A stretch of DNA of 40,258 nt, taken from IMG/VR virus record IMGVR_UViG_3300008255_000227, positions 1 through 40,258 of that record; one strand, given 5' to 3'. Source of the DNA: a virus. Lineage: Duplodnaviria > Caudoviricetes. Both the position numbers and the translations under genes were made by a program. The notes beneath the pieces were generated by a model. It did not search any database, was not told the origin of the DNA, and worked only from the letters and a program-made list of their open reading frames with translations. Shown piece after piece: positions 914 through 23,326 of the stretch (position 1 is its first letter; each line of letters starts with the position of its first letter).

Positions 914-920
914 TATACTG
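905..920. promoter_or_regulatory. Palindromic operator copy 1
   Basis: CCGTAT-TGTT-ATACTG, one mismatch to CCGTAT-N4-ATACGG. Confidence 0.65.
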
Positions 921-1854: not shown

Positions 1855-1856
1855 TA

Positions 1857-4322: not shown

Positions 4323-4344
4323 TGGCAAACCAAAGAGGAACAAA

Positions 4345-4644
4345 ATGAAAAAGCCCCTGCACCCACATCTGAAACTGATTCCCCCAGCGCGCCTTGCTAA
4401 AATGACAGATAAGCAAAAGCGCGTTGTGGAAGGCTATACCAGCTTGGACAAGCTGAAGGCCGTGCTGCGCTGGAAGCCCCGCATCACGGCGGTGGGAATC
4501 AGTGTTTCCAAGCTGGCAGAAAGCCTGCAACCGCCCAAAGAGCAAAGCCGCGTTTCGGAATGGCTGATCTTTACGCATGAACCGGAGGAAGAAAACTATC
4601 TGGCGGTGGAAGCGGCGATTTACCGCTTTGAAACTACCGCATGA
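4345..4644 (+). CDS. Cro-like helix-turn-helix regulator
   Basis: GISVSKLAESL...QSRVSEW pattern; first gene after the divergent promoter; AGAGGA RBS. Confidence 0.6.
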   Translation: MKKPLHPHLKLIPPARLAKMTDKQKRVVEGYTSLDKLKAVLRWKPRITAVGISVSKLAESLQPPKEQSRVSEWLIFTHEPEEENYLAVEAAIYRFETTA

Positions 4645-4709
4645 AATAGGCCCGCCGGCAGCGCACCTGGCGGGCTTCAACAAGGGCGCAAAAAGACGGG
4701 AAAAGCACA

Positions 4710-5396
4710 ATGACATTACCTTGGTATCCGCGCGACATGGGGAAATATGCGCGCGACACTAAACACCTCACGATGATGGAACACGGGGCCTATAACTTGC
4801 TGCTGGATCACTACTATTCCAACGGCGGCCTGCCCCAAGTTAGCAATGCTTCTAGCAATGCTTCCTTAATGCCTGATCATAGCCGCCTATATCGCTTGTG
4901 CGGGGCCATGAACAAAGCAGAACAGGAAGCCGTTGATGCGGTGATTTCGATGTTCTTCACGCTGGATGATTCCGGGCACTACCGGCAAAGCAAGGCTGAT
5001 GAAGTCATTGAAGAACAAACACTTAAACATGAAAGGCGCGTGGAAGCGGGCCGAAAAGGGGGCCAATCCAAGGCCGGAAGCAATGCTTCTAGCAATGCCC
5101 CCCAGAAGAAGAACCAGACAAAGACAAAGAATATAAAACCCCCTACCCCCAAACAGGGGCCTGTGTATAACGGTGATAACCAAGGTTTGCTTTCAGGGGG
5201 GGCTGGCGCTGGCTTCAACATCGATTTCAAACTTTCAGATTCGGCACGGGATAAGGCAAAAGCAATTTGCCGCGATCTAAACCGCGATTTCTATGTGGTC
5301 ATGCGGGAATATAACCATTGGGTGGCCGGAAAAGGCGCGCCGCAGTTCCCTGATGCCGCTTTTATCGCCTACTGCAAAAAGCTGGATCGGCTATGA
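4710..5396 (+). CDS. Replication initiator-like protein, DUF1376/YdaU family
   Basis: LPWYPRDMGKYARDTKHLTMMEHGAYNLLLDHYY N-terminus and AGRKGG motif; internal iterons. Confidence 0.85.
   Translation: MTLPWYPRDMGKYARDTKHLTMMEHGAYNLLLDHYYSNGGLPQVSNASSNASLMPDHSRLYRLCGAMNKAEQEAVDAVISMFFTLDDSGHYRQSKADEVIEEQTLKHERRVEAGRKGGQSKAGSNASSNAPQKKNQTKTKNIKPPTPKQGPVYNGDNQGLLSGGAGAGFNIDFKLSDSARDKAKAICRDLNRDFYVVMREYNHWVAGKGAPQFPDAAFIAYCKKLDRL
4841..5098. repeat. Iteron-like repeats (putative replication origin)
   Basis: AGCAATGCTTCTAGCAATGC at 4842-4861 and 5079-5098, followed by an A-rich tract. Confidence 0.65.
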
Positions 5397-5626
5397 AGTG
5401 CTGCGATGATCCGCAATGCCCGGTCAATCGGCATGATGATGATTTCCAGTTGCTTCACGCCGCCTATTTGAACCGGCGCCTTCAGCAAGAGCGCGCGCGA
5501 TTCTGTGGCACCAGCCGCGAACCGCATCCCTTCCTGCTGGGCGCGTTCATCCGTGCGGAAACTGAACTTTTCATTGTAATGCACGCCGAAAACATCGGCG
5601 GGCCAGAGGAAGAACCATGCCAGTGA
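5393..5626 (+). CDS. Hypothetical protein
   Basis: ATGA overlap with the upstream gene. Confidence 0.55.
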   Translation: MKCCDDPQCPVNRHDDDFQLLHAAYLNRRLQQERARFCGTSREPHPFLLGAFIRAETELFIVMHAENIGGPEEEPCQ

Positions 5627-6090
5627 AGCGCCCCTTGATCAGATACCACGGCGGGAAATGGCTGCTGGCGCCGTGGATCATCGCCAATATGCCGGCGCAT
5701 GATTGGCAGAACTACGGCGAAGCCTTTCAAGGAATCGTGGAACGTCTGCGCGGCGTAGTGATCGAAAACCGCGATGCAAAACAGGTAATGGCAAAGCACG
5801 ATTCGCCGGAAACCCTGCACTATGTTGATCCCCCTTATCTCATGGAAACCCGCACCGATTCAGGCAAGGACTACCGGCACGAAATGACGGATGCCCAGCA
5901 CTTTGAACTGGCCGAATTCCTGCACGGCCTTCAGGGGCCTGTCATGGTTTCAGGCTATCGATGTGATCTTTATGATTCGGCTTTCCGTGGCTGGCACCGC
6001 ATCGACCGTGAAGCGCTGGCAGATGGCGCGCGTAAGCGCATTGAAAGCCTGTGGTTTTCGCCCAGCGCGGCACCAGCGCGATTAATTTAA
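5617..6090 (+). pseudogene. Dam/D12-family adenine methyltransferase with in-frame internal deletion
   Basis: RYHGGKW (motif X) and YVDPPY are present, but there is no EPFxGxG SAM motif or recognition domain; only 157 aa. Confidence 0.75.
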
Positions 6091-6111
6091 AAACCCCCCT
6101 TGCGTTTGTCG

Positions 6112-6127
6112 CCGTATTCTTATACGG
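6112..6127. promoter_or_regulatory. Palindromic operator copy 3
   Basis: CCGTAT-TCTT-ATACGG in the intergenic gap before the 6152 operon. Confidence 0.75.
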
Positions 6128-6151
6128 TGCTTAAAGGGAAAGGAACTTGAA

Positions 6152-6559
6152 ATGAAAGCATTAAAACACGATACCAGAATCACCAGCGCGGGAATGGCAG
6201 TGGCCATGCGAACCAAGGACAGAAAACCGCGCTTCATGGTGGTGGGAAATCCTGATATTCAGATGACACCTGGCACCATGCGCCTTTTGACCGATGAAGA
6301 ACGCGCCCAGATGAGTCTGCCGGATGATTGGTGGCAAAAGAACCCGCCAATCCTGCACGCGCACCACCAGCCCACTTGGTCACAAGGAAACGGGCGCATA
6401 CGGCGCGCGCTGCGCTATATCGGCGCGGCGGCTGTTCTGTTCGCCCTGATCATCGGCTTCATGCTTCTGGCGGTGGATGCCATCGACCGTGAAGCTGCAT
6501 GGCGTGAAGAACGCCTGTGCCGCATTTACGGCGTGTGCAATCCAAACGCCGGCCCATAA
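6152..6559 (+). CDS. Hypothetical protein with one TM helix
   Basis: AAGGAA RBS; hydrophobic YIGAAAVLFALIIGFMLLAV. Confidence 0.6.
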   Translation: MKALKHDTRITSAGMAVAMRTKDRKPRFMVVGNPDIQMTPGTMRLLTDEERAQMSLPDDWWQKNPPILHAHHQPTWSQGNGRIRRALRYIGAAAVLFALIIGFMLLAVDAIDREAAWREERLCRIYGVCNPNAGP

Positions 6560-6592
6560 TTCATAACTGCTTTCTTGGGAAAGGGAAAAGCA

Positions 6593-8473
6593 ATGTCATA
6601 TCAGCTTCCACTGGATAACGAAATGATCGTGGACAACTTCGCCGGCGGCGGCGGCGCGTCATGCGGTATTGAAGCGGCGCTGGGCCGCCCTGTAAACATC
6701 GCCATCAACCATGACCGCGTGGCCATCGGGATGCACGCGAAGAACCACCCTTTGACAGATCACCATTGTGAAGATGTGTGGCAAGTGAAGCCCCGCGAAG
6801 TCACCAAAGGCCGGCCGGTGCTGCTGGCGTGGTTTTCTCCCGATTGCAAACACCACAGCAAAGCGCGCGGCCAGAAGCCCGTGAACAAGAACATCCGCGG
6901 GCTGGCGTGGGTCGCATTGCGCTGGGCCGCCACTGTGCAGCCGCGCATAATCATGCTGGAAAACGTGGAAGAATTTCAGGATTGGGGGCCTGTGGTCCAT
7001 GCCCGCGATGAAAAGGGCCATCTGCGCTATAACAGCGATGGCAGCAAGGTGATGATGCCGGATGCCGATCGCCGCGGCATCACCTTCCGTTCCTTTGTGA
7101 ACGCCCTGAAGCGCAACGGGTATGAAGTTGAATGGCGCGAACAGCGGGCCTGCGATTATGGCGCGCCGACCATCCGCAAGCGCCTGTTCCTGATCGCCCG
7201 CCGTGATGGCCTGCCGATCATCTGGCCCAAGCCCACCCACGGTAAGAAGGCGAACAAGTCGCTGGGCGTGAAGCTGTACCGCACCGCAGCGGAGTGCATC
7301 GATTGGGATATTCCGTGCCCTTCCATCTTTGACCGCAAGCGCCCGCTGGCGGTGAACACCCTGCGCCGAATCGCCAAGGGCCTTGAAAAATTCGTGATCA
7401 ATAATGCGGATCCGTTCATTGTTCGGGTGAACCACACGGCCAGCTATTATGAACACTTCCGCGGGCAATCCATCCATGATCCGCTTGGCACAGCAACCCA
7501 GGTCAATGGATTTGCCTTGGCGCAGCCCACGCTGGCGCCTTTCATCACGGAACACGCCAACGGCAGCAACCAGCGCAATATGGCGATGGATGAACCGACC
7601 GCCACCACCACAGGCAAGGCCGACACCGCGGTGATGTGCCCCACGCTGATTCAGGTCGGCTATGGCGAACGCGAAGGCCAGCAACCCCGTGCGCTTGACC
7701 TTGAAAAGCCCATTGGCACGCTGGTGGGCGCTGGGAAGCACGCAATCGCCGCGGCCCATGTGATGAAATTCAGGCACGACTCTGGCGGTTCGGATATGAA
7801 CGCGCCCCTTCCAACGATAACGGCCGGCAGCTTCATTAAAAGGCCGGGCGGCGCGGGCCATGCAATGGGGGTTTGTAACGCCTACATCACGAAGCTACGC
7901 GGCGACAACGTGGGCCACCCTGCTGATGAAAGCCTGCACACGGTTTCCGCAGGCGGGCAACACCACGCGGTTTCCATGCCTTTCATGGTTAAGTATTACG
8001 GCAACGGGGATGGCAAAGAACCCCACACGCTGGATAAGCCGCTGGGCGCTATCACCACCAAGGACAGATTCGGCCTTGTGGATTCGTGCGTGGATTTCCC
8101 GCCCCTTACACCCGACCAGATCGACCGTGCCCGCCAGGTGGCCGACCTGATGCGCGAGTTCGGATATTGGGATGATCGGGAATTCGTCACCGTCATGCTG
8201 GATGGCGTGGAATTGGTGGTGGTCGATATTGGGATGCGTATGCTGGCCCCGCGCGAACTGGCGCGCGCGCAGGGCTTCCCCGATTCCTACATCATCGACC
8301 GCGCCCTGATCTGGGATGAAGCCACCGGCGCCTATGTGGAACGGCAGCTGACGAAAACCGAACAGGTGCGGATGATCGGCAATAGCGTTTCGCCCGAACA
8401 CGCCAAGGCGCTTGTGCTGGCCAATGTGCCCCGCTGGGCCATCCAGCCTGCACAGCACGCGGTGGGGGCTTAA
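6593..8473 (+). CDS. C5-cytosine DNA methyltransferase with long repetitive variable region
   Basis: FAGGGG (I), SPDC (IV variant), ENV (VI), RKRLF (VIII), RELARAQGFP and IGNSV (IX-X). Confidence 0.93.
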   Translation: MSYQLPLDNEMIVDNFAGGGGASCGIEAALGRPVNIAINHDRVAIGMHAKNHPLTDHHCEDVWQVKPREVTKGRPVLLAWFSPDCKHHSKARGQKPVNKNIRGLAWVALRWAATVQPRIIMLENVEEFQDWGPVVHARDEKGHLRYNSDGSKVMMPDADRRGITFRSFVNALKRNGYEVEWREQRACDYGAPTIRKRLFLIARRDGLPIIWPKPTHGKKANKSLGVKLYRTAAECIDWDIPCPSIFDRKRPLAVNTLRRIAKGLEKFVINNADPFIVRVNHTASYYEHFRGQSIHDPLGTATQVNGFALAQPTLAPFITEHANGSNQRNMAMDEPTATTTGKADTAVMCPTLIQVGYGEREGQQPRALDLEKPIGTLVGAGKHAIAAAHVMKFRHDSGGSDMNAPLPTITAGSFIKRPGGAGHAMGVCNAYITKLRGDNVGHPADESLHTVSAGGQHHAVSMPFMVKYYGNGDGKEPHTLDKPLGAITTKDRFGLVDSCVDFPPLTPDQIDRARQVADLMREFGYWDDREFVTVMLDGVELVVVDIGMRMLAPRELARAQGFPDSYIIDRALIWDEATGAYVERQLTKTEQVRMIGNSVSPEHAKALVLANVPRWAIQPAQHAVGA

Positions 8474-11228: not shown

Positions 11229-11406
11229 TAAGAAGGCCACGGCTGCCCAGCGCGAATTCCTTCCCACTGGCGCACGCATCGCGCAGTTATCGCATGACCT
11301 TCACAGCATGGGCGCGCACCAAGCGGCCCGCCATGTTCAGCAAGCTGGCGATATTTTCCACAGCGATGTGGAAAGAATTTTAAAATTAAGAGGAAAAAAA
11401 CAATGA
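11215..11406 (+). CDS. Hypothetical protein
   Basis: Coupled ORF with AAGG RBS. Confidence 0.55.
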   Translation: MAKVDKKATAAQREFLPTGARIAQLSHDLHSMGAHQAARHVQQAGDIFHSDVERILKLRGKKQ

Positions 11407-12413
11407 CTGAAACAGCCCAGCGCGTGGCGGCATGGCGTGAAACAGGCCGCACAGGATCATCCAGCAAAACGATGGCGGCCCACCTGATGGGCGAAACTGT
11501 GCCTTCGCCTTCCTATCCGCATGATGCGGCCGATTTCGGGCGGTGCCTGGCGCTTCTGGATGCCGTGCCGGAATTCCGCGCGCGCATCGGTGAAATGGCA
11601 GAACTTTCTGGCTATGTCGGGGAAGTCTGGGGCGCGCTGGCCGAAAATTGGGCCACGCTGGAAGAACTTCACGGGCAGATGCCTGAATCCTGCACCACGG
11701 CCATGAAGGCCATCCTGAAGCCAATAGAGGAAGCCAGCGGGCGCGTGGTTCGGCTTGGCGGCAATGCTTCGCTGCACCTTCCTGACAACCCGCTGGGCAA
11801 CATGATGAAGGAAGGCATGGAAATTTCCTATGCTGCCGCGGTTAAGGCGTGCGTGGATGCTGGGGAAGTCACCCACACCATCATCCAGCGCGCCACCGGC
11901 CTGAACACGGAAATGCAGGCCCAGATCATCCAGCGCATGACAAAGGATGGTTTGGTGGAACCCACCGGCAAAAATGGAAAGCTGTTGCTGACAAAAAAGG
12001 CTATACAAGCCATAGGCATAGCGGATAAAGTGCAAGAGATTGCAGAAGCAACGGGAAAACCGGCCGCACAGGTGCTGGATGCCGCCAAAAAGGCGGTGGG
12101 CATCGGCCACAATTCAGGGGAAAAAGCTGTGGATAAGCAGGAAGAAATGATGAATCAGGCAAAGGGCACCGCCGAAGGTGAGATTTCCGGCCAGCGCCTG
12201 AAATCGTTCATTGAACGGGTCGAGCGCCTGGAAGAAGAAAAGCGCACGCTGGGCGAAGATGTGCGGGATGTATATTCAGAAGCAAAATCACAGGGCTTTG
12301 AACCCAAGATTATGCGGAAAATCGTGGCACTTCGCCGGTCAAACCTTGAAAAGCGGCGGGAAGAACAGGAAATTCTTGATCTTTACATGGCCGCCATCGG
12401 CATGGCCGAATAA
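11403..12413 (+). CDS. Multidomain protein: unknown N-domain + FtsK-gamma-like winged helix + GapR (DUF2312) domain
   Basis: C-terminal QRLKSFIERVERLEEEK...DVYSEAKSQGFEPKIMRKIVALR is GapR-like; central YAAAVK...IIQR...IIQRMTKDGLVEP resembles FtsK gamma. Confidence 0.85.
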   Translation: MTETAQRVAAWRETGRTGSSSKTMAAHLMGETVPSPSYPHDAADFGRCLALLDAVPEFRARIGEMAELSGYVGEVWGALAENWATLEELHGQMPESCTTAMKAILKPIEEASGRVVRLGGNASLHLPDNPLGNMMKEGMEISYAAAVKACVDAGEVTHTIIQRATGLNTEMQAQIIQRMTKDGLVEPTGKNGKLLLTKKAIQAIGIADKVQEIAEATGKPAAQVLDAAKKAVGIGHNSGEKAVDKQEEMMNQAKGTAEGEISGQRLKSFIERVERLEEEKRTLGEDVRDVYSEAKSQGFEPKIMRKIVALRRSNLEKRREEQEILDLYMAAIGMAE

Positions 12414-13284: not shown

Positions 13285-13318
13285 GTTCAGGCCCGCCCGT
13301 AAAAAGGCGGGCCTGAAC
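13285..13318. terminator. Perfect 13-8-13 inverted repeat (probable terminator insulating cassette A)
   Basis: GTTCAGGCCCGCC-CGTAAAAA-GGCGGGCCTGAAC. Confidence 0.6.
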
Positions 13319-13343
13319 TTCAAACAGCCCCTTAATTTGTCGT

Positions 13344-13559
13344 AAACAACATTATCACATCGCTGGGAACAGGCACCGACCGCGATGTGGTCATGGTCGA
13401 ATTCACCGGCACCCCTACCCTCACCCACCATGCCACCAACCTTCCCCTGCCCAATAACGCCAATATCTTGGTGGAAGCCGGCGACAAGGCTATTTTCGCG
13501 CGCCGCGGCAGCGCGGGCAGCGGGCAGTGGGATCTGATCAGCTATCTGCGGAAATCTGG
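13344..13559 (+). repeat. Tail-fibre switch repeat, copy A (216 bp)
   Basis: By manual alignment, 10 mismatches to copy B (direct) and 11 to copy C (inverted). Confidence 0.97.
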
Positions 13560-13983
13560 CCGTTCACTTGTCGGTGCAGAAAAATTGCAGGCCAATCCAG
13601 CCAACCCAACAGGAACATCATCAGCCACAAAAGTGCATATGGGTGTAGGCCAGACTTTTACGCCAAGAAAAACAGGCAATATTCTTTGCATTATCAGCGG
13701 CACTTGCGGCACAGTCACCAATAAAGCAACCACCATTTCATTGCGATATGGAACTGGATCGGCGCCTGCCAATGGCGCCGCAGAAACGGGTTCATCAGGA
13801 AATGCAGATATTACTTGCGGCAACGCATCTGCAAACGCAGACGGAAAGCCTTTTAGCCTGAATTCTGTTATATCTGGCTTAACAATTGGAACAGCTATAT
13901 GGGTAGATTTTTCTGCGGCACTTTCAACTGCCGGGGGAACCACCACATTCAGCAATATTTCAATTTCAATTGTTGAAATATAA
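13345..13983 (+). CDS. Silent tail-fibre C-terminal cassette A (no native start)
   Basis: Begins with the NNIITSLGTG...SYLRKSG segment of the tail fibre, then a distinct beta-rich domain; in-frame TAA just upstream and no RBS. Confidence 0.85.
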   Translation, partial: NNIITSLGTGTDRDVVMVEFTGTPTLTHHATNLPLPNNANILVEAGDKAIFARRGSAGSGQWDLISYLRKSGRSLVGAEKLQANPANPTGTSSATKVHMGVGQTFTPRKTGNILCIISGTCGTVTNKATTISLRYGTGSAPANGAAETGSSGNADITCGNASANADGKPFSLNSVISGLTIGTAIWVDFSAALSTAGGTTTFSNISISIVEI

Positions 13984-13988
13984 GCAGA

Positions 13989-14276
13989 TCAGCGCGCATC
14001 GACTATCTTGGAAATGCTTTTCTTGTCGGCATTGCATGATGCCAGCGCCTTATCCTGCGCGTGCATAAACACGCCCAGATCGTTATCGGTCATGGTGTTT
14101 TCATCAGGGGGTGGTGGGGCTGGGGTTGGCTTCAGGTAAACCGCTGGCACGCTTTGAGTCACCGGCTTCACTGGCTGGTGCCCCTCTAAGCAACCGGACA
14201 GCGGCACGCAAAGGCAAACTATTGCGGCCGCAAGCGCTATCCGGCAGCTTCCTGATTTCATCGACCGTGGCAGCAT
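13989..14276 (-). CDS. Outer-membrane spanin (Rz1-like lipoprotein)
   Basis: Lipobox LSGC, Pro-rich, CNADK end; overlaps the i-spanin. Confidence 0.85.
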   Translation of the reverse strand: MLPRSMKSGSCRIALAAAIVCLCVPLSGCLEGHQPVKPVTQSVPAVYLKPTPAPPPPDENTMTDNDLGVFMHAQDKALASCNADKKSISKIVDAR

Positions 14277-14526
14277 ATTTCTGTTCCCTTTCCAGTGTTT
14301 CGGTGATGGAAGCCTGAAGGGCATCCACCGTGGTTTTGTGGCTGGCTTCCAGCGCGATATTGGCGGCCACCAGTTCAGTGTTTGCCGCCTTCAGCGTTTT
14401 CACTGCGGCGCGGTTCTGTTCGGCGTTCCTGATATAAAGCAGGATGGCGCCGGCCACGGCGGCGATCACCAGCGCAAGAATGATATTCTTCCACGGCAGG
14501 GCCTTCAGGGCAGCGAACTGAATCAT
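14104..14526 (-). CDS. Inner-membrane spanin (Rz-like)
   Basis: N-terminal TM helix then coiled coil; follows the endolysin. Confidence 0.85.
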   Translation of the reverse strand: MIQFAALKALPWKNIILALVIAAVAGAILLYIRNAEQNRAAVKTLKAANTELVAANIALEASHKTTVDALQASITETLEREQKYAATVDEIRKLPDSACGRNSLPLRAAVRLLRGAPASEAGDSKRASGLPEANPSPTTP

Positions 14527-14918
14527 GGGGCACCTACGATGTGAAGGGTGAATTCAGGCGGCAGAAGGCCGCGCAGCTTGTCCAGAGTGGCACGGGAATT
14601 GACGATGCCCGGCACGCCGCCGATCACACCCTTTGCAGAACCCACAAGGATGCAGCCCTGTGTGTCTTTGTGGGTGTTTCCAGCGTGAATAAGGATTGCT
14701 TCGCGCGGTGCGGTCTTTCCCAAAATCCACACGTTCTTATATTTTGTGCCGCTGTGTGGGCGCACGGGATATGCACCTGGCGGGATGCAGGAAATTCCCT
14801 TGGCATTATTGCGATCAGGATCTTCCAAGGTTAGGCACACGGCCTTGCCATCGATGTAAAAGGTTCCGAAAACGCCGTTTTCAGTGCTTTTTTCGCGGAT
14901 GATTGTGAATTTTTCCAT
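14523..14918 (-). CDS. Putative endolysin, DUF5675 family
   Basis: TLED...SCIPPGAY...ILIHAGN..DTQGCILVG; between holin and spanins. Confidence 0.85.
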   Translation of the reverse strand: MEKFTIIREKSTENGVFGTFYIDGKAVCLTLEDPDRNNAKGISCIPPGAYPVRPHSGTKYKNVWILGKTAPREAILIHAGNTHKDTQGCILVGSAKGVIGGVPGIVNSRATLDKLRGLLPPEFTLHIVGAP

Positions 14919-14949
14919 GCCGTGCCTTCCAGCTTCCGGCATTGGCCGG

Positions 14950-15279
14950 CTATTTCGTGAACTTGTCAATCAACTGATCCAGCCCGCGTTTCAGCATCTG
15001 GAAAACAGCGCCCTTGTTCAAGATCATAGCATGAAGGCCATCGCGCGCCAAGATTGCCGAACAGCCCGTGATCGCCAGCGTGACAAAATCAGGTGCATCC
15101 AGTTCCATAGCGATGCCGCCGGCCAGCACCCCAATGGGGGCCGAAACGATGAAAAGGGCCAGCCAGTGCCTTATTCCGCGCTTTTCGGGCATGATAATGG
15201 ACTCCATCAAACCACATATGACCGACACGAAAAAAAGCAAGATCAGATCGGGCAGCTGTGAAAAAAGTCGTTCAAACAT
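14950..15279 (-). CDS. Putative holin
   Basis: 109 aa, 2-3 TM helices, basic C-terminus, upstream of the endolysin. Confidence 0.7.
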   Translation of the reverse strand: MFERLFSQLPDLILLFFVSVICGLMESIIMPEKRGIRHWLALFIVSAPIGVLAGGIAMELDAPDFVTLAITGCSAILARDGLHAMILNKGAVFQMLKRGLDQLIDKFTK

Positions 15280-15666
15280 CTAACGCCCCCCATCCTGTTT
15301 TGGTTTCGGCCCTTCATAGTGTTTCAGCACCAAAAAGGAAAAAAGGTGCCATCCGATCATGCACAGCCCTTCCAGCGCATGATAGAACGCAAAAATGAAT
15401 TCTTGTTTGCTGGGCAAAAATCCCAGATGCCCATCCATAAGATAGCGAAACAGCGCCAGCACAATCAGCATATTGGCCACGGTGGATAGCACTGTGAGGA
15501 TATAAATCGCTTCAACGGGGCTTTTAAGCAGACGGGTGACACGGCTGGCTTCAAACCTGTTCTGATGCACTGCAATAACAGCAAAGCCCATGACAAGGCT
15601 GATGCAGTGGAAAACAACGGCTGACCAGTAAACGTGCCCGAACAGGGAAATATAATCTTCAATCAT
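15280..15666 (-). CDS. Membrane protein (possible second holin/antiholin)
   Basis: From MIEDY; about three TM helices; abuts the holin. Confidence 0.6.
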   Translation of the reverse strand: MIEDYISLFGHVYWSAVVFHCISLVMGFAVIAVHQNRFEASRVTRLLKSPVEAIYILTVLSTVANMLIVLALFRYLMDGHLGFLPSKQEFIFAFYHALEGLCMIGWHLFSFLVLKHYEGPKPKQDGGR

Positions 15667-15688
15667 GCCCGGTTTTCTTAATGGAAGG

Positions 15689-16894
15689 TTAAGGCCCTTC
15701 CGGGATGGTATCACCGTTTTCCAGTTTTTTAAACCTTGGATTTTCCCAGCCGGATGCCATCGCTTCAGCGGCGGCGTTCGCGCCCGCCTTCTTTTCCTTA
15801 TTGTGAATATATCGGCTGGTGGTTTCCATGCGCTTGTGGCCCAGAAGATCGCCAACCTGGCGCTGTGAAAGCCCGCCTTTTTCGTGTGCATAGCTGCCGG
15901 CCGTGCGGCGCATATCGTGGACGGTGAAACCCTCGATCTTCAGCGCCTTCCGCATGGCTTCCCACTGGCGCCATGTCCAGCTGATGGCCTTGCGCTTGGT
16001 GGTAGCGCTGGGGAATATGAAGCCGGTTTTCGGGCGGCCCAGCGCCTTGTGCAGGGCCTTCAGGATCACCAGCGCGCGCTGGGGCAGATATACCACCCGC
16101 CCGCCGGTTTTATTGTCGGGCAGAATATAGACTTCTGCGGCCCATTGAATCCATTCCCAGCGCCCAAGTCGCCATTCATCACGGCGCAGGCCCGTTAAAA
16201 GCAGAAGGGCGAAAAGGTCAACATAGCGCCAGCCCGCCTTGCGGTTGCGCTTGTATTCATCGAAGGAAGCATAAAGGCGCTGGTTTTCATCATCGGACAG
16301 GATGCGATCGCGGCCGCCTTCCTTGAACCGGCGCGCCTTCCTGAACGGGTGGTTTTCAATGCTGGCACCATGCCAGCGCAGGGCCACCAGCACCAGCGCC
16401 ACGCATCGGTTGAACGTGGCAGGCTTCTTTGCCAGCCGGCGGCGCAGGCGGTTCACATCTTCATCAGAAAGGCTTTCCACGGCGCTGGAACCTATGCACG
16501 GCAATATATGGGCGTTCCAAAGGGAATCATATCCGGCCATCGTCTTTGGCTTCAGTTCACCTTTCCGCAGGCGCTGGTGCGCTTCGGCCAATTCCCGCAC
16601 TGTGGCGATGGTGCCGTGCCCTGCGAACGGATCCCTGCCTGAATATAGCGCAGCCAGGCGTTCCTTGGCCTGCGCCCGCGCTGCCGCAACTTCCAGCACC
16701 GCGCATCGGCCCAGCGTCATAATGCGCTGCCGGCCGGCGATGCGGTAGCGCAGCACATACGCCTTCACGCCCGCGCTGGTGCAGCGCACGCCGAAACCGG
16801 GCAGTTCACTATCCCACAGGTAAACGAATTGCCCGCCTGTACGGTCTGGGCCAAAGGTCAAGGCATCGATGCTGGCGCGGGTTATCTTAGCCAT
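15689..16894 (-). CDS. int: Tyrosine recombinase, P4-like integrase with N-terminal arm-binding domain
   Basis: LWDSELPGFGVR...YR..GRQR..TLGR N-domain; catalytic R (TGLRRDE), K (NKTG), HDMRR, LLGH, Y (TSRY). Confidence 0.92.
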   Translation of the reverse strand: MAKITRASIDALTFGPDRTGGQFVYLWDSELPGFGVRCTSAGVKAYVLRYRIAGRQRIMTLGRCAVLEVAAARAQAKERLAALYSGRDPFAGHGTIATVRELAEAHQRLRKGELKPKTMAGYDSLWNAHILPCIGSSAVESLSDEDVNRLRRRLAKKPATFNRCVALVLVALRWHGASIENHPFRKARRFKEGGRDRILSDDENQRLYASFDEYKRNRKAGWRYVDLFALLLLTGLRRDEWRLGRWEWIQWAAEVYILPDNKTGGRVVYLPQRALVILKALHKALGRPKTGFIFPSATTKRKAISWTWRQWEAMRKALKIEGFTVHDMRRTAGSYAHEKGGLSQRQVGDLLGHKRMETTSRYIHNKEKKAGANAAAEAMASGWENPRFKKLENGDTIPEGP

Positions 16895-17163
16895 GCTGGT
16901 GTTTTCGGGTTCACGCTCTTGGGTTTCAGCGCCTTCAGCCGTTCCATGATGGTATCAAAGGGGGGCAGTTCTTCCCCGAATTCTGCGGCGCACCATTTTT
17001 TAAACAGGTGCTGAAGGCTGCAATCGCCCGCCTTGAACATCCAGCTGCCGGATGGTGATCTGGTGGCCTGCATCTGGCTATGACTATCAAGGCGCACATA
17101 AATGCGCTGATCCGTCACCTTTCCGCTGATGCTTAATTTTTCCCACCAAGTCACCTTGATCAT
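16882..17163 (-). CDS. Hypothetical protein
   Basis: Overlaps int start and the upstream ORF. Confidence 0.55.
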   Translation of the reverse strand: MIKVTWWEKLSISGKVTDQRIYVRLDSHSQMQATRSPSGSWMFKAGDCSLQHLFKKWCAAEFGEELPPFDTIMERLKALKPKSVNPKTPAWLR

Positions 17164-17351
17164 GCAGGCACCGTGCGGATGGCTGCGGCGGTTTTATAGG
17201 CGGCAAGGCGCTTCTGCACGCGCTTTAGTTCCTCGATCAGAAGGGCCTTTTCGGTGTTTGCCTTGTGGTTCGGGCTGGGCAGGGCGGTTGCAATGTTGAT
17301 GGCGCTGGCGGTCAAGCGTTCGATTGCTTCGGCGTTTTTTGCATTGTTCAT
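17160..17351 (-). CDS. Hypothetical protein
   Basis: ATGA-coupled to the downstream ORF. Confidence 0.55.
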   Translation of the reverse strand: MNNAKNAEAIERLTASAINIATALPSPNHKANTEKALLIEELKRVQKRLAAYKTAAAIRTVPA

Positions 17352-17414
17352 GGCGGTGGCTTTTCGGAAATAGGGTGAAGCGCCGGCGGTTGTCTATCAT
17401 TTTTCCGGTTTTTT

Positions 17415-17438
17415 GAGAGTCAAAACCCTTTGACTCTC
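17415..17438. promoter_or_regulatory. Perfect 10-bp inverted repeat (operator or terminator)
   Basis: GAGAGTCAAA-ACCC-TTTGACTCTC in an intergenic gap. Confidence 0.5.
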
Positions 17439-17470
17439 GCGGATGAAAGACAACCGCCCTGCCACAGGGT

Positions 17471-18340
17471 TTAGGCCAAGGCGCGCTTGGCTTCATTCAC
17501 GGCATCATTCCAGCCGCGCACCGCGGTGGGATGTGCGCGCATCAGTTCGCGCACCGTGTGTTCATGGGCCAGCAAGCCTTCCAGAGCTTCCTTCACGCTC
17601 TTGGGCTTGCCAGGTGCTTTTTTGATGATGCCGGCGCCCTTGGTTTCCAGTTCGGTGACAACTTCCGAAATCTGGGCTTCGCGCGCCGCATCCGGCAACT
17701 GGTTCCATTGATCAATGGTCAATCCAGTGCGGCGGTGCGCTTCACATACCACATCACCAAGCGGAACCTTCCCGCCTTCGCCAAGATCAAATTCAGATGG
17801 CTGGCGATCACTGCCAATAAGTGTTTGATAATGGGATTCATCCTCGCCTTCTTCTGCACCTGGCACGGGCAGCTTGGTGACGGATTGCTTCAGGCCGGTG
17901 GCTTTTTCTGCCGCCTTTACCTGTTTGGCCGCCAGTTCCTCGTTCTGATCTTCAGAAAGGGGTTTTTCAGGCTGCACAGGCTGCGCGCCGCCGCCCAGCG
18001 CGGCATCCAGTTTCACTGCGGTGGCCGCGGTGGAATCATCAGCGCCATCGCCGTTTTCGCCCAGCGCGGGCGGTTCATCAGAATCGCCTTGGGTTTGAAC
18101 AGTCTTGCTGGCGTCATCTTCGCCCGGGCCGCCTGCGGCTTGGCCATCGGCGCCTTCGGTTTCAGCGCCTTCAGGGGCGGCAGGCGCGCTGTCATAACCG
18201 TGATACTTCAGAATGGCTTCCTGAATGTCGCCTTTCTTGTCACGGCCTTCCAGATTGATTTTTTCGCGCTGCGCGTGTTGGCGCAGCTGTGGCACCGTCA
18301 TTTCATCGATTTCCTTGACTGTGGGGATTTTCTTGCTCAT
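17471..18340 (-). CDS. Protein with N-terminal Rho-N/HeH-like domain and acidic linker
   Basis: IDEMTVPQLRQHA...KKGDIQEAIL; AAGGAA RBS; promoter candidate TTGACG-N17-CATTGT at 18431-18403. Confidence 0.7.
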   Translation of the reverse strand: MSKKIPTVKEIDEMTVPQLRQHAQREKINLEGRDKKGDIQEAILKYHGYDSAPAAPEGAETEGADGQAAGGPGEDDASKTVQTQGDSDEPPALGENGDGADDSTAATAVKLDAALGGGAQPVQPEKPLSEDQNEELAAKQVKAAEKATGLKQSVTKLPVPGAEEGEDESHYQTLIGSDRQPSEFDLGEGGKVPLGDVVCEAHRRTGLTIDQWNQLPDAAREAQISEVVTELETKGAGIIKKAPGKPKSVKEALEGLLAHEHTVRELMRAHPTAVRGWNDAVNEAKRALA

Positions 18341-18580
18341 GGCGTGTTCCTTTATGCTATGATGGGTGGATGAAAAGCCCCTTTTTCAGAGCCTGCAAAC
18401 CCACAATGGCACGGTTCTTTTCGCGCGTCAATGTAAGCGCTATATAAGCGCGTGCAGAATTTTCTATTTTTCCATTGTTTTCCCATAGGTTAGGAACAGA
18501 TTACACCCTTCATGCGTTCTGGGGTGTTAGGCGCTGTTCTTAATGTTATACATCGGAAATCATTGCGCTTTCTGGCTTTT

Positions 18581-18609
18581 ATCCCTTCTGTTGTCCTAAC
18601 AGAAGGGAT
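18581..18609. repeat. Perfect 12-bp inverted repeat in AT-rich intergenic region
   Basis: ATCCCTTCTGTT-GTCCT-AACAGAAGGGAT. Confidence 0.7.
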
Positions 18610-18624
18610 TGCCCTGCTTTATCA

Positions 18625-18640
18625 CCGTATTTTTATACGG
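18625..18640. promoter_or_regulatory. Palindromic operator copy 4
   Basis: CCGTAT-TTTT-ATACGG. Confidence 0.75.
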
Positions 18641-18650
18641 AAGAAAGTTC

Positions 18651-18679
18651 TTGCACCGACCAGCGCGCGCTGGTAATTT
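18651..18679 (+). promoter_or_regulatory. Sigma70-like promoter with palindromic spacer
   Basis: TTGCAC-N17-TAATTT; perfect 16-bp palindrome ACCAGCGCGCGCTGGT at 18659-18674. Confidence 0.6.
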
Positions 18680-18686
18680 CATCATC

Positions 18687-18770
18687 AGATGGGAAGGCGG
18701 CACCGGGCCGCGCCACGGTGTTTCATCGAAGCCACCGCTGGCTGGGGTTCAAATCCCCGCCCATCACTTA
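18687..18770 (+). ncRNA. tRNA-like RNA (non-canonical cloverleaf)
   Basis: Acceptor GATGGG/CCCATC, D stem GGCG/CGCC, CGGTG/CACCG stem with 12-nt loop, 5-nt variable loop, T arm TGGGG-TTCAAAT-CCCCG; no U8, no CCA. Confidence 0.6.
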
Positions 18771-18793
18771 ACCTTAACAAAGAGGAAAACCAC

Positions 18794-18982
18794 ATGACTC
18801 CCATGACAGCAGGCCGCGCAGCATATGAAGCCTATTGCGCCACCACGGGCTGGAAATCGGCCGTAACGGGCGCCGACCTTCCGCAATTCGTGGACACGAA
18901 ACCGGAAATTCAGGAAGCGTGGGAAAACGCCGCTGCCGCCGCGATCAATTTCCACGGCCCCGGCGAACAAGCCGCGGCATAA
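18794..18982 (+). CDS. Small phage hypothetical protein
   Basis: AGAGGA RBS; GRAAYEAY...GADLPQF...QEAWENAA motif. Confidence 0.7.
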   Translation: MTPMTAGRAAYEAYCATTGWKSAVTGADLPQFVDTKPEIQEAWENAAAAAINFHGPGEQAAA

Positions 18983-19118
18983 CCGATGCCCAGCGCGGCC
19001 CTGAAAGGGCTGGCGGTCTATCCTGCGCGCCTGCCGCAGTCGGTGGATGCAAACAGCGGGCAGAGGGGGCGGGGCGCCCTGCCCCCTCTTTAATTTTCAA
19101 ATAAAGGACGGGAATCCT

Positions 19119-19769
19119 ATGCACATCAAAATCGGAACCACAGGCCGCGGTTGGGCCATCGCTGAATTCGCTGATCGCTATGGCGCAGCGTGTTCCATCC
19201 AAAAATCATCCCTTGCCACCGAAAACGCGATATGGCTGGGCGTGGATGATGCCGATCCCAAAATAATGGCGCGCGATGCCGCGGCGCATGGGGTAGCCAC
19301 AGAAGAAACGGTGGGCTGGGTTCCATTCCCGATTCCGCAGGCCGTTCAGCTTCGCACGCGGATGCACCTTACACAGGAACAGGTGGCTGAACTTTTGCCG
19401 ATTTTGCAACACTTCGCGGAAACCGGCGAACTGCCCGAAAAGGCCCCCTGCGCGGTGGGTGACGATTGTGAAGAATGTCGGGATGAAAAAGACAGTCAGG
19501 CCGCCGCTGTTGATGCCGCGGAAACCCTGCTTAGGCACAAAATAGGTGCGGCGCTGTATGAAAAATTTGAGGGAGTCAGGTTCACGCCAGAAAACATCGA
19601 AACGGTCAAGGCCCAAATGGTGCAAGTGATCGCCGCGGTGATTCAGGAAGTGGTGCCACCGCATATCCCGATGCCGGAAGTTTCCATTGAATTTGACAAG
19701 GATACATGCGGGCTGAACATCGAAATCAGCGCGCCGCCGCGGCCTGTAACGCTTGAATTCAAGGTCTGA
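19119..19769 (+). CDS. Phage hypothetical protein
   Basis: TGRGW...FADRYG..CSIQKSSLATE.AIWLG...RMHLT.EQV motif; AAGGA RBS. Confidence 0.75.
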   Translation: MHIKIGTTGRGWAIAEFADRYGAACSIQKSSLATENAIWLGVDDADPKIMARDAAAHGVATEETVGWVPFPIPQAVQLRTRMHLTQEQVAELLPILQHFAETGELPEKAPCAVGDDCEECRDEKDSQAAAVDAAETLLRHKIGAALYEKFEGVRFTPENIETVKAQMVQVIAAVIQEVVPPHIPMPEVSIEFDKDTCGLNIEISAPPRPVTLEFKV

Positions 19770-19805
19770 AGATGCGGCCCGCGATTGTTAAAACAGGGTG
19801 ACACC

Positions 19806-19958
19806 ATGAAAGCCTATTTGCGCGGCCTGCGCCGCCGTTATATCGTGTGGATGGCACGCCGCCTGCCGGAATACAAAAGCGAAGAATTCAGGGCGATCAT
19901 GCGCGCGGAACGGCGCGCATGGGCCGCCCATGATAAACGGCAACGGCCCCGCCGCTGA
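19806..19958 (+). CDS. Small basic protein, 50 aa (not in ORF track)
   Basis: MKAYLRGLRRRYIVW...; AGGGTG RBS; fills the operon gap. Confidence 0.5.
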   Translation: MKAYLRGLRRRYIVWMARRLPEYKSEEFRAIMRAERRAWAAHDKRQRPRR

Positions 19959-19985
19959 AGCGGGCCAAAAGGAAGGAAGAAAGCT

Positions 19986-20282
19986 ATGGCAAAGAAGAAC
20001 GCCGAACAGCAACCCGTGACAAAGGAATCCATCGCCGCTGAAAATGCTGCCGCAGCTGAAGCGCAGGCTGAACAGGCACCTGAACCGAAGTGCTATGACT
20101 TTGAAGGCATCGTGCGCGCGCTGGGTGAACAGGGCATTTCCAGTGTCACCCTAAAGGACTTCACCGCAGATCCTGAATCTGGCGCGCTGGTCGGCAAGGT
20201 GTTCAAGGTCGATGGCGATGTGCTGGCCGAAGTGCGCCTGGCGGGCGATCGCGTGGTGGTTCAAAGCCACTGCGAAATCTAA
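19986..20282 (+). CDS. Hypothetical protein
   Basis: AAGGAAG RBS; ends just before a terminator. Confidence 0.7.
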   Translation: MAKKNAEQQPVTKESIAAENAAAAEAQAEQAPEPKCYDFEGIVRALGEQGISSVTLKDFTADPESGALVGKVFKVDGDVLAEVRLAGDRVVVQSHCEI

Positions 20283-20301
20283 AAAAGCCTTGATATTATA
20301 G

Positions 20302-20332
20302 AGAAAGCCCCGCTTCGGCGGGGTTTTCTTTT
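20302..20332 (+). terminator. Rho-independent terminator insulating cassette B
   Basis: AGAAAGCCCCGC-TTCG-GCGGGGTTTTCT-TTT. Confidence 0.9.
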
Positions 20333-20336
20333 ACCT

Positions 20337-20552
20337 AAACAACATTATCACATCGCTGGGAACAGGCACCGACCGCGATGTGGTCATGGTCGAATTCACC
20401 GGCGCACCCACCCTCACCCACCACGCCACCAACCTTCCCCTGCCCAATAACGCCAATATCGTGGTGGAAGCAGGCGACAAGGCGATTTTCGCCCGCCGCG
20501 GCAGCGCGGGCAGCGCGCAGTGGGATCTGATCAGCTATCTGCGGAAATCGGG
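20337..20552 (+). repeat. Tail-fibre switch repeat, copy B (216 bp)
   Basis: 10 mismatches to inverted copy C and 10 to direct copy A. Confidence 0.97.
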
Positions 20553-21009
20553 GTTGGCGCTGGGCAGCCCGAAAACTTACATTGCCACGAATTCCACATA
20601 TTCGACTGGCACCAGCGCCATCCCGACCGATGGAACGGTGCCGCAAAGCAGTGAAGGCACGGAAATTCTCACCACCACCTTCACGCCCAGCCCGGGCACA
20701 AAGCGCCTGAAGATCAGCGCAAACACCAATGTGAACATAGGTTCAACGGGTGCATATGGTGCGCTGGCTATTTTCACAAACGATAGCGCCAGCGCTTTGA
20801 ACGCCCGCGGCTTTTCAACGGTGAACGCATCAAACAACACCTTTGGGATTGGCTGTGATGCCATATATACACTGCCCGATCTGGGATCAATCACCATTTC
20901 CGCACGTATCGGGTGCAGCGGCACCTGGCGCGTGAATGGTGATAGCACCGGCACGATGTTTGGCGCCGCCGGCGTGTCGACTCTCATTGTCGAAGAACTT
21001 ATGGATTAA
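20338..21009 (+). CDS. Silent tail-fibre C-terminal cassette B (no native start)
   Basis: Same shared segment, then a second distinct C-terminal domain; in-frame TAG at 20299 with no ATG before the repeat. Confidence 0.88.
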   Translation, partial: NNIITSLGTGTDRDVVMVEFTGAPTLTHHATNLPLPNNANIVVEAGDKAIFARRGSAGSAQWDLISYLRKSGLALGSPKTYIATNSTYSTGTSAIPTDGTVPQSSEGTEILTTTFTPSPGTKRLKISANTNVNIGSTGAYGALAIFTNDSASALNARGFSTVNASNNTFGIGCDAIYTLPDLGSITISARIGCSGTWRVNGDSTGTMFGAAGVSTLIVEELMD

Positions 21010-21021
21010 GAAAGGGTTAAT

Positions 21022-21315
21022 ATGTCCAAGATCACCGATGCCATCGCCCACGCATATCCGGGCCTTCAATTTTCCATGATCAATGATGATCCGGCCACTA
21101 TTGTGTGGGCCGATAAAGAACAGGCACTTTCCAGCGCCCAGATTGCGGCCGCCGTGGAAGATTTTGACAAGGCCCAGCGCCGCCGCGAAATCATCGCTGA
21201 ACTGGCCGATATTGATCTGAAATCAATCCGGCCGCTTCGCGCCGGTGAAGGCGACAAGGTTCAGGTGCTGGATGATCAGGCAGCCGCCCTGCGCGCTGAA
21301 CTTGCGGCGCTTTAA
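21022..21315 (+). CDS. Tail-fibre assembly/accessory protein of cassette B
   Basis: Follows cassette B; shares DL.SIRPLRAGEGD...Q...LR.ELA.L C-terminus with 21312-21611. Confidence 0.75.
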   Translation: MSKITDAIAHAYPGLQFSMINDDPATIVWADKEQALSSAQIAAAVEDFDKAQRRREIIAELADIDLKSIRPLRAGEGDKVQVLDDQAAALRAELAAL

Positions 21316-21611
21316 AGCCCTGCCAGTTCTTCACGCAATAATTGGGCCTGCCTGTCTATTTCTGCCAGTCTATCCCCCTCCCCTGCCCTTAAAGGCCGGA
21401 TGCTGGCTAGATCAAGCGATGAAAGTTCTAAAATTATTTCGGCGCGCCGGCTCTCTTTTTCCACGGCAGGGGAGGGGGCGGGATTGGCATAATTACCATC
21501 TGACTGAAGGACTTGCCCCGCAATAACATCATCTGGCGCCGCCACAAAACCTTCCTGTGGTGACAGGGAAACGCTTTGAACCACTCCATTTTCAATCTGA
21601 ACAAACTTCAT
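21312..21611 (-). CDS. Tail-fibre assembly/accessory protein of the expressed fibre (cassette C)
   Basis: Follows the tail fibre gene; paralogous C-terminus; convergent stops overlap at TTAA. Confidence 0.75.
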   Translation of the reverse strand: MKFVQIENGVVQSVSLSPQEGFVAAPDDVIAGQVLQSDGNYANPAPSPAVEKESRRAEIILELSSLDLASIRPLRAGEGDRLAEIDRQAQLLREELAGL

Positions 21612-21620
21612 TTTTACCCC

Positions 21621-22685
21621 TTATAAGTATTTCTTTATGTGAACCATATTCATACGCTCTGTGAAGCCACTCACGTTGAAAGTGGGCTGTGCGGTGCTGG
21701 CGCTTTTCGGATATATTTCAATTCTGAAAGTTTTACCGGCAGCAATGGTGAAAAACCATCGATGGCTTCCAAAACCTTTCATTGCTACGTTTGATTGGTT
21801 TTTATCGTTAAGGCCGCGCCCTACCTCAACAGAGTCGGTTACGTTATAAAGCCGCGCAACAGGATCAACCGTGCCCGTGCTATAAATGGAAATAAGGGCC
21901 TCAATATCATAAGTTCCAGCGGGCAGGGTGAACTGATTGCTTGCCAGTGTCACAATGCTATCGTCATCTGACTCTTCTGTGTTTAATGGCACTGTTTGCC
22001 ATGAACGCGCGCTATAAGTAACCCATGAGCTGCCTTGTGCTAGTTCATGCACCAACCTTGCATATTTTACAGGTTCTGGCGCTTGAAGTGCTTTTCCCGA
22101 TTTCCGCAGATAGCTGATCAGATCCCACTGCGCGCTGCCCGCGCTGCCGCGGCGTGCGAATATCGCCTTGTCGCCTGCTTCCACCACGATATTGGCGTTA
22201 TTGGGCAGGGGAAGGTTGGTGGCATGGTGGGTGAGGGTAGGGGTTCCGGTGAATTCGACCATAACCACATCGCGGTCGGTGCCAGTTCCAAGCGATGTGA
22301 TAATGTTGTTTCCGGAAACTGAAATGAAGTGAGAATCCGCGGCGCCAATGTTCGTGGTGGCGGCTGATGCAATCGTGGTGCCCTTGCGCTGAAGCACGCC
22401 AAGGTTGGCGCGCGCCGCGGCATAGTCGGCCAGCCCGGTCAGGTTGTCGGCCTTGTACATATCGCCGCCGGTGGCCAGCGCCTGAATGGCTTGGCCCAGC
22501 TGGGTCAGGTCGCCATCATCAGGAGTCAGGCCCGCCAGAACGATAGCGGCGACAATCTCGCGCATCGGGTGTTCGATAGCTTCCGCAGGGGGAATGGAAC
22601 CTTCCGTGCTGGTGCTGGGGTTGGCGTTGATATAGGGGCGATCAGGATCCGCTTGGTTCCCGTTAATCGGCGGCACATAATACAT
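21621..22685 (-). CDS. Tail fibre / receptor-binding protein (expressed form)
   Basis: After the Mu gp48-like gene; N-terminal GSIPPAEAIEHPMREIV...AGLTP...DLTQL..AI anchor; C1q-like beta-rich C-terminus. Confidence 0.9.
   Translation of the reverse strand: MYYVPPINGNQADPDRPYINANPSTSTEGSIPPAEAIEHPMREIVAAIVLAGLTPDDGDLTQLGQAIQALATGGDMYKADNLTGLADYAAARANLGVLQRKGTTIASAATTNIGAADSHFISVSGNNIITSLGTGTDRDVVMVEFTGTPTLTHHATNLPLPNNANIVVEAGDKAIFARRGSAGSAQWDLISYLRKSGKALQAPEPVKYARLVHELAQGSSWVTYSARSWQTVPLNTEESDDDSIVTLASNQFTLPAGTYDIEALISIYSTGTVDPVARLYNVTDSVEVGRGLNDKNQSNVAMKGFGSHRWFFTIAAGKTFRIEIYPKSASTAQPTFNVSGFTERMNMVHIKKYL
22096..22311 (-). repeat. Tail-fibre switch repeat, copy C (216 bp, inside the expressed gene)
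   Basis: Inverted relative to copies A and B. Confidence 0.97.
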
Positions 22686-22693
22686 ATTATTCC

Positions 22694-23326
22694 CTACCCT
22701 TCATAGCTGAAAATTACCTCTGTGTGCGCGGGCTTCAGCTTGTTAATAATACACTCTAAATCATCCGCATTGTCAATCTTGGCCAGCGGATCCTTGCCAA
22801 GTTCAGACTGTGAAACGCGTAACCATGTCACGCGCGGTTCCAGAACTTCCACCCGCCAATAATAGCGCAAATCCAGCAATTCCGTCACGCCATATACCAC
22901 GGTGCTGGCGCCAATTTCTTCTTCCACCAGCCCACATTCGGACAGGCCGCACACGAAGGGCCGGAATTCCTTGAAAATGGTTTCATAGCCCAGGGCATCG
23001 GCTTGCTGCTTAAAATATCCGGTTGATTGCCCGCCTATGGCTGTCAGCTTCTGCACCACGCGGTTCCGGCGTTCTTGAATGGTCTGGCTAGGCGCAAAAA
23101 CACATTCATCAGGCAGGCCGGTGATGCGTTCCCAATCGGTCAGGGTTTCCAGCGCCGTGCGCGGGTCGGCTTCATCCAGCATATTACCCACGCGGGAATC
23201 CACGCGGTTAAGTTCAAGGGAATAGGCTTCCACCATCGCATCGCGCTGGGCAGCGCCTTCACGCGGCCATGCAAGGCCCGTGGGCAGCAAGTTCAGAAGA
23301 AGGGCTTTATAATCCCTTACACCCAT
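22694..23326 (-). CDS. Baseplate protein, Mu gp48/YmfQ (DUF2313)-like
   Basis: LLPTGLAWP...EADPRTA.E.L.DWER..GLPD.C...LEC.INKLKPAHT. Confidence 0.9.
   Translation of the reverse strand: MGVRDYKALLLNLLPTGLAWPREGAAQRDAMVEAYSLELNRVDSRVGNMLDEADPRTALETLTDWERITGLPDECVFAPSQTIQERRNRVVQKLTAIGGQSTGYFKQQADALGYETIFKEFRPFVCGLSECGLVEEEIGASTVVYGVTELLDLRYYWRVEVLEPRVTWLRVSQSELGKDPLAKIDNADDLECIINKLKPAHTEVIFSYEG

Follow-up and report, generated by a model that had tools for sequence, protein, structure and literature searches.

The IMG/VR virus record IMGVR_UViG_3300008255_000227 (Duplodnaviria; Caudoviricetes) is a single contig of 40,258 nt, and the entire record was analysed here as the window. It carries a tail-fibre gene in which an internal segment of 216 bp recurs at two other places, each time in front of a different fibre tip, and this layout resembles an invertible tail-fibre switch. 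The record is classed as linear and 88% complete (CheckV), with 13 nt common to both ends, so the results reported below as not found in the window apply to this record only. Family profiles described a temperate myovirus with lambda-like head genes, Mu-like tail genes, a tyrosine integrase and a GapR-like gene. The GapR-like gene points to an alphaproteobacterial host, as do the relatives of the phage.

The fibre gene encodes an anchor, a linker domain and a tip, here called tip C, and contains repeat C, whereas repeats A and B run on the opposite strand (Table 1). The copies differ at 10 (A/B, 95.4% identity), 11 (A/C, 94.9%) and 10 (B/C, 95.4%) of the 216 bases, share identical runs of 57-67 nt, and are by far the longest repeats of the window; the inverted pair that comes next has 42 nt and 71% identity. 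From repeats A and B the reading frame continues into tips of 140 aa and 151 aa. Both spare tips are open frames, and the three tips are mutually unrelated (21-26% identical). A swap would give predicted fibres of 337 aa with tip A and 348 aa with tip B, compared with the deposited 354 aa with tip C. The sole in-frame ATG within the repeat is at offset 49, where no Shine-Dalgarno sequence was evident by eye. Cassette A ends five bases from the Rz1 stop. An earlier note, made from the sequence alone, had described three inverted repeats of about 95% identity, extra copies without a native start that run in frame into different C-terminal domains, a hairpin or terminator before each, and a third cassette on the far side of the lysis and integrase modules, 7 kb away, and all of this was recovered at the same coordinates. 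In contigs of the run that is possibly the source of the record, the A-type and the C-type repeat are both present as distinct versions, together with each flank. Thus, the copies are not plain misassembly, a possibility that the earlier note had raised. The same contigs break at the repeats and leave the orientation of the segments unfixed.

Table 1. Features of the tail-fibre locus and of the segments between the repeats (positions in the window)
Feature	Position	Strand	Remarks
Hairpin of 13 bp before cassette A	13285..13318		In the related strain directly between the upstream gene and Rz1
dif-like site A (spacer 13346-13351)	13335..13362	-	Rank 3 of 80,462
Silent cassette A: repeat 13344-13559 and 140-aa tip	13344..13983	+	Head to head with Rz1
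Lysis genes: Rz1, Rz, DUF5675 putative endolysin, holin-like	13989..15279	-	Inside the 9-kb segment
Tyrosine integrase with arm-binding domain	15689..16894	-	PF00589 and PF13356; inside the 9-kb segment
Hairpin with T-tail before cassette B, terminator-like	20300..20331	+	Overlaps the XerD-like arm
dif-like site B (spacer 20339-20344)	20328..20355	-	Rank 2 of 80,462
Silent cassette B: repeat 20337-20552 and 151-aa tip	20337..21009	+	
Chaperone-like gene after tip B, 97 aa	21022..21315	+	Function suggested by position
Chaperone-like gene after tip C, 99 aa	21312..21611	-	Function suggested by position; 39% identical to the gene after tip B
Tail-fibre gene, 354 aa: anchor, linker domain, tip C	21621..22685	-	PHROG tail-fibre matches; after Mu gp48-like and baseplate J genes
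Repeat C (fibre codons 125-197)	22096..22311	-	
dif-like site C, in coding sequence: XerC-like arm 22293-22303, spacer 22304-22309, XerD-like arm 22310-22320	22293..22320	+	Rank 6 of 80,462

All three repeats start at the same base, in the middle of the linker domain and inside a 28-bp sequence that resembles dif, the site at which XerC and XerD resolve bacterial chromosomes. Read on the strand opposite to the repeat, each of these sites has an 11-6-11 layout, with the XerC-like arm CGATGTGATAA and the 6-bp spacer TGTTGT identical in all three, followed by XerD-like arms that differ, namely TTACGACAAAT in A, TTAGGTAAAAG in B and TTCCGGAAACT in C. Identity among the copies ends two bases outside the spacer, as expected if the arms stay with their own flanks. 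The earlier note had implied that a dedicated crossover site was lacking, and this part did not hold, since a dif-like site of the tyrosine-recombinase type lies at the outer edge of every repeat. Compared by eye, the three sites resemble the proteobacterial dif sequences listed in Table 1 of PMC2731167.

To score the sites, a matrix was built from 23 candidate dif sites of alphaproteobacterial and related genomes, out of 35 loci, after genomes with many matches and one unpublished genome had been left out; two or three of the training sites may be chance matches. Sites B, A and C ranked 2, 3 and 6 among the 80,462 28-mers of the window. The fair test concerns the nine outer bases of the XerD-like arm, which lie outside the repeat and differ between the sites. 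With these bases alone, the three sites scored among the best 0.5%, 0.4% and 2.0% of the window, and among the best 1.8, 1.4 and 5.5% of a control of AT-rich 28-mers. A second control consisted of 120 unrelated viral sequences that match these sites in their inner 15 bases. None of them had the linker domain, and 3, 3 and 7 of them scored as well as the three sites. G5, A8 and A9 were present in all three sites and in 4 of the 120 chance matches. The best of the 120 (L266) looked like a chance match in AT-rich DNA and was set aside. The coding sequence at site C is also unusual. The fibre peptide there is N-N-I, at positions where 66 homologous domains have mostly T-T-T (N, N and I occur 2, 1 and 0 times by position), and the 28 bases are 39% G+C within a stretch of 60% G+C, which suggests a constraint on the DNA. 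A fourth dif-like 28-mer, at 22670-22697, covers the start codon of the fibre gene and has a perfect ATAA-6-TTATG core, a different spacer and the top score of the window (12.1). It is missing from L159 and L100 and scores within the range of shuffled maxima, and it may be a chance match, an accessory site or an attachment site.

The inner and the outer edge of the repeat have different origins. Among 72 homologous proteins examined, 58 yielded the 66 linker domains. The inner edge of the repeat coincides with the end of this common domain, and this is where tips are exchanged in the family: P0203 and P0225 are 90% identical over anchor and linker and 20% identical over their tips, the tip of P0203 is 78% identical to tip C on an anchor of 53% identity, and P0013 is a natural full-length fibre in which the linker continues into a B-like tip. 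The outer edge falls in mid-domain, and the upstream half, which is missing from cassettes A and B, is present in 61 of the 66 domains. Four proteins (P0203, P0225, P0022 and P0204) comprise anchors of 75-90% identity with unrelated tips and a protein that starts in mid-domain and has a C-type tip, and possibly belong to switches in related phages; P0204 resembles a start-less cassette and lies on a contig of 1,481 nt. A protein search for start-less cassettes returned only the three of the window itself.

For tip B, an Atlas model resembled viral Pgp3-C-like domains (template modelling, TM, score 0.88-0.90) and the N-terminal lectin of Bc2L-C (TM 0.69), and for tip A the likeness to BclA_C or Bc2L-C-type domains was weaker and serves as a lead only. 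These models would place the tips among lectin-like fibre heads, as leads. A single-sequence AlphaFold model of the fibre, with a mean predicted local distance difference test (pLDDT) score of 37.8, was set aside. Two chaperone-like genes of about 98 aa lie head to head behind tips B and C, and cassette A is without one. Profile searches gave no family match for the gene after tip C.

The repeats carry traces of two processes. Third-codon positions account for 12 of the 15 variable sites among the copies (P=0.0003), so that selection on the spare copies is visible. The differences are also arranged in blocks, first C-only, then B-only and then mostly A-only (5 runs in 14 sites, P=0.002), and this mosaic indicates that homologous exchange also acts on the repeats.

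Three relatives provided the comparison of gene orders that the earlier note had proposed as a check, and they show an alternative arrangement. In L159 (gp48 65% and integrase 64% identical), L087 (J 69% and integrase 52%) and L088, none of which has a switch, the fibre module lies head to head with Rz1. In L159 and L087 the integrase gene is opposed to the tail genes, and in the L087 contig the GapR-like gene and the integrase gene point in the same direction. This is the order expected of the isomer produced by a C×A inversion. Judged from gene order, at least one flip of the 9-kb block is thus likely to have occurred; tip A and the order found in these relatives are likely ancestral, and the B/C pair would be an addition. 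The GapR-like gene of the window (11403-12413), with the DNA-binding domain at its C-terminus, lies ~0.9 kb upstream of cassette A and is also found in the L087 contig. At the endolysin position, the DUF5675 gene (14523-14969) has an unrelated gene in its place in L159 and L087.

A closer strain, 9-12% divergent and in the same orientation as the window, was found in runs X5 and X6 (two samples of one study). It lacks cassette A and its site, and the base corresponding to 13319 is joined to 14002 through 11 other letters. The flank contigs of this strain stop within repeats B and C, at offset 186, and a middle contig, bounded by repeat ends on either side, has no match to tips B or C or their chaperones. 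Thus, the inverted B-C pair appears to be kept while the tips change, and A is dispensable. The copies of the repeat differ by 5%, compared with ~10% between the strains. The endolysin position of the X5/X6 strain holds a replaced stretch of equal length.

Wider searches found few inverted copies and, in the DNA that was available, no relative that shares the layout. Of 85 loci with the fibre or the linker domain, only L001 and L007, which are the same phage, had an inverted copy, and L073 had a 73% fragment of one; of 107 gp48 loci, only L099 and L158, again the same phage, had long and nearly identical inverted repeats. Each of nine cultured phages has a single copy of the linker domain. Scans started from the integrase and from the chaperone-like gene returned one locus and, beyond the same phage, one locus without a switch, respectively. 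Four of 16 further genome loci were scanned for dif-like sites. At L205 11621-13173, just downstream of a distant gp48 homologue, several perfect inverted repeats of 23-30 nt look like a fibre shufflon with short sites.

The sites of the gix/cix type have a 2-bp core and work with a Fis enhancer. No serine resolvase or invertase was found in a six-frame search of the record with PF00239, which was positive in 13 of 14 control genomes, and a six-frame search with PF00078 found no reverse transcriptase, the enzyme expected of a diversity-generating retroelement. Both results agree with what the earlier note had read by eye. The only tyrosine recombinase in the six-frame search was the integrase, which scored far below the profile cut-offs for XerC and XerD. 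This integrase, or another tyrosine recombinase in trans, could treat the three sites as sites of the core type. No other recombinase was found in the record, the integrase gene lies within the 9-kb segment, the arms of site A are near-symmetric, and tyrosine invertases switch fibres in Rin of Bifidobacterium (PMC6109161) and in the haloviruses phiH1 and phiCh1 (PMC6210493). However, the enzyme has an arm-binding domain, which Rin is described as missing (PMC6109161), it is conserved in relatives without a switch (64% identical in L159 and 52% in L087), and the arms of the sites fit the asymmetric outer XerD positions. We consider a switch run by the integrase or another tyrosine recombinase rather improbable.

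The reading that we prefer is that host XerC and XerD invert segments at the dif-like sites while homologous exchange keeps the repeats alike, and from the sequence we give it a probability of about 0.5. The phage would keep one complete fibre gene and two start-less spare tips behind 216-bp linker-coding repeats, and site-specific inversion would occur at the 28-bp sites that mark the outer repeat edges, with host XerC/XerD as the likely catalysts. Strand exchange in the spacers of C and B (~2.0 kb) would join the anchor to cassette B, which brings its own chaperone-like gene, and exchange between C and A (~9.0 kb) would join the anchor to cassette A and turn the lysis-integrase block round as well. 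The earlier note had proposed a three-state switch; the three-tip inversion anatomy stands, whereas inversions alone would give four isomers, one with tip C, one with tip B and two with tip A. The remainder of the repeat would not be the crossover itself but homology for importing new tips, kept alike by homologous exchange and ending at the natural tip-swapping junction of the family. The degenerate XerD-like arms make a slow, XerC-first or helper-dependent reaction likely. The fibre tip likely chooses the host.

Several observations count against this proposal. The sites scored 7.3-12.0, compared with 26.6-45.6 for 20 of the 23 training sites, and shuffled windows had a mean maximum of 8.9 (95th percentile 14.1) with 1.2 sites of at least 7.3. 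Thus, no site is significant alone, and only the coincidence with three repeat edges is. In addition, 11 positions of the matrix were fixed by the search pattern, and the idea of dif arose after the sequence had been seen. All three XerD-like arms keep T1 and G5 and differ from TTATG at position 4, with C differing also at position 3; T4 is missing throughout, and hence there is no TTATG arm. In Vibrio cholerae, FtsK-driven recombination needed TTATG, and Xer integration driven by XafT needed mainly T1 and G5 (PMC9226527); no XafT-like helper was identified for the sites of the window. Xer sites of plasmids and of integrative mobile elements exploiting Xer (IMEX) are often degenerate (PMC9226527, PMC5357621). 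Together with the weak scores and the loss of T4, this suggests weak or helper-dependent Xer targets and not chromosomal dif.

The block mosaic is a further point against inversion by XerC/XerD, since it indicates a homologous exchange that could by itself invert the segments. RecA or a phage recombinase would then act on the 216-bp repeats at low frequency, inverting the segments or converting the tips, and the dif-like edge would be unused or a relic of the way in which the cassettes arose. The long identical runs between the copies, the family-wide tip swaps at the inner edge and the contigs of the related strain, which merge in the distal part of the repeat only, all fit such recombination. 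It leaves unexplained why the repeats share a start in mid-domain, inside a dif-like site whose unshared arms fit, and it is compatible with XerC/XerD action as a second process. We regard homologous recombination alone as an unlikely explanation for the switch.

The contigs also gave no sign of present-day flipping. In seven runs, where only assembled contigs, which drop rare variants, were available, the anchor was never joined to tip A or B. In X1, X5 and X6, contigs ran unbroken through sites B and C with no abundant second isomer visible, X4 and X7 held short pieces only, and L001, a second contig of the same phage that is possibly not independent, had the same B/C orientation. One X2 contig joined B-type letters (offsets 124-179) to tip A; it was not counted because k-mer assembly would collapse such a bubble and because X3, from the same sample, had A-type letters. 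P1 grown lytically is likewise reported to be mostly in one orientation (bioRxiv 10.1101/2022.07.24.501295). The missing isomers and the loss of A in the related strain would also fit a fossil, with A stranded by a single past inversion of 9 kb and cassettes that have ceased to switch, or stand-alone A and B proteins made from the internal ATG, where gene callers indeed start both (P0010, P0011). In contrast, the frames are intact and the changes mostly synonymous, the repeats are only half as far apart as the strains, and a protein begun at this ATG would start in mid-domain, behind a hairpin and with no evident ribosome-binding sequence. Idle or stand-alone cassettes are quite improbable.

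Inversion by XerC/XerD has one more difficulty. A and B are direct repeats, and one pair of the three sites is always direct, whatever the isomer. An unfiltered A×B crossover would excise 6,993 bp with the lysis genes and the integrase in the deposited state. A fuller version of the XerC/XerD proposal, which we hold only tentatively, is an active three-tip host-range switch that would run wholly on host XerCD, with a dif mimic in the fibre coding sequence and one flip that turns the 9-kb lysis and integrase block. In this version inversion would be favoured over the lethal A×B deletion by the degeneracy of the XerD arms, and perhaps also by the ~200 bp of repeat on the XerC side, which could play the part that accessory sequences have in cer and psi.

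Among known systems, the locus resembles P1 C/Cin, Mu G/Gin and p15B Min, the last with more than two tips, in that the N-terminus of the fibre is constant and the crossover site, a candidate here, lies inside coding sequence (bioRxiv 10.1101/2022.07.24.501295; PMC6109161). The chaperone-like genes of B and C are placed head to head, as are U and U' of P1 (bioRxiv 10.1101/2022.07.24.501295). Inverted, start-less, in-frame tips that each have a chaperone, a feature of Gin, Cin and Min, are found here for B and C, and A has no chaperone-like gene. Unlike those systems, the locus has no serine recombinase, its sites are 11-6-11 and dif-like, and its third tip is set apart by the lysis and integrase genes. 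It works like Mu G, P1 C and Min but is not a member of the group, as it has no serine invertase. It also resembles the Rin shufflon of Bifidobacterium prophages (PMC6109161) and Int1 of phiCh1/phiH1 (PMC6210493), which have the tyrosine-type inversion among fibre or receptor-binding tips that is proposed here, and Rin is described as having the same problem of directly oriented sites (PMC6109161). In Rin and phiCh1/phiH1, a dedicated recombinase, armless in Rin by that account, lies beside or within the cassettes, whereas here an arm-type integrase is common to relatives that do not switch and the sites resemble dif. The locus is not a Rin-type shufflon, since it has no armless invertase. For one bifidophage inversion, no nearby recombinase is reported (PMC6109161).

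Mobile elements that use host XerC/XerD offer a parallel for the sites. On Acinetobacter plasmids, inverted XerC/D sites with identical spacers are reported to invert reversibly, and the pdif (pXerC/D) modules there are likewise a case of degenerate XerC/D sites carried by a mobile element, in which the two sites of an active pair have the same spacer (PMC9947245). As described in that study, pdif sites bound whole modules and have identical XerD arms, whereas here one site lies inside coding sequence and the XerC-like arm is the shared one, with XerD-like arms that differ. IMEX, such as the CTX, VGJ and TLC phages and the gonococcal island, also carry dif-like sites for host XerCD, some with divergent XerD arms (PMC5357621, PMC9226527). 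IMEX integrate at chromosomal dif, in contrast to the sites here, which would recombine with one another and rewrite a gene in a phage that has its own integrase. No tail-fibre switch run by host Xer was found in the literature searched, which leaves most subscription papers outside, and the main text of a survey of gene-altering inversions (PMC9881135) does not contain the word Xer.

Elsewhere in the window, the regions 813-8473 and 39470-40186 hold three DNA methyltransferase genes (N6/N4, D12-type and C5) and a gene with a ParB-like/methyltransferase N-terminal part. A tRNA-like cloverleaf at 18688-18765 (+) has a TTCAAAT T-loop and a long anticodon arm; its fold z is -3.75, 0 of 200 shuffles were as stable, and no match was found in the loci of the relatives. 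ARAGORN and Rfam did not call it and returned nothing at threshold for the window. An inverted repeat with 12-bp arms and a 5-bp spacer at ~18580-18610, upstream of the int-lysis block, is kept at 30 of 31 bases in L159 (17538-17568) and may be an operator or an attachment core. A sigma-70 promoter scan of the window was at chance level (9 found, 6.9 expected).

To our knowledge, fibre switches bring their own invertase. If the sites are Xer targets, host XerCD would rewrite a phage gene, a role beyond integration and the shuffling of plasmids, and switches of this kind would be missed by searches for an adjacent invertase. The three natural sites, two of them direct around essential genes, would then also be a test system for how Xer is steered towards inversion away from the chromosome terminus.

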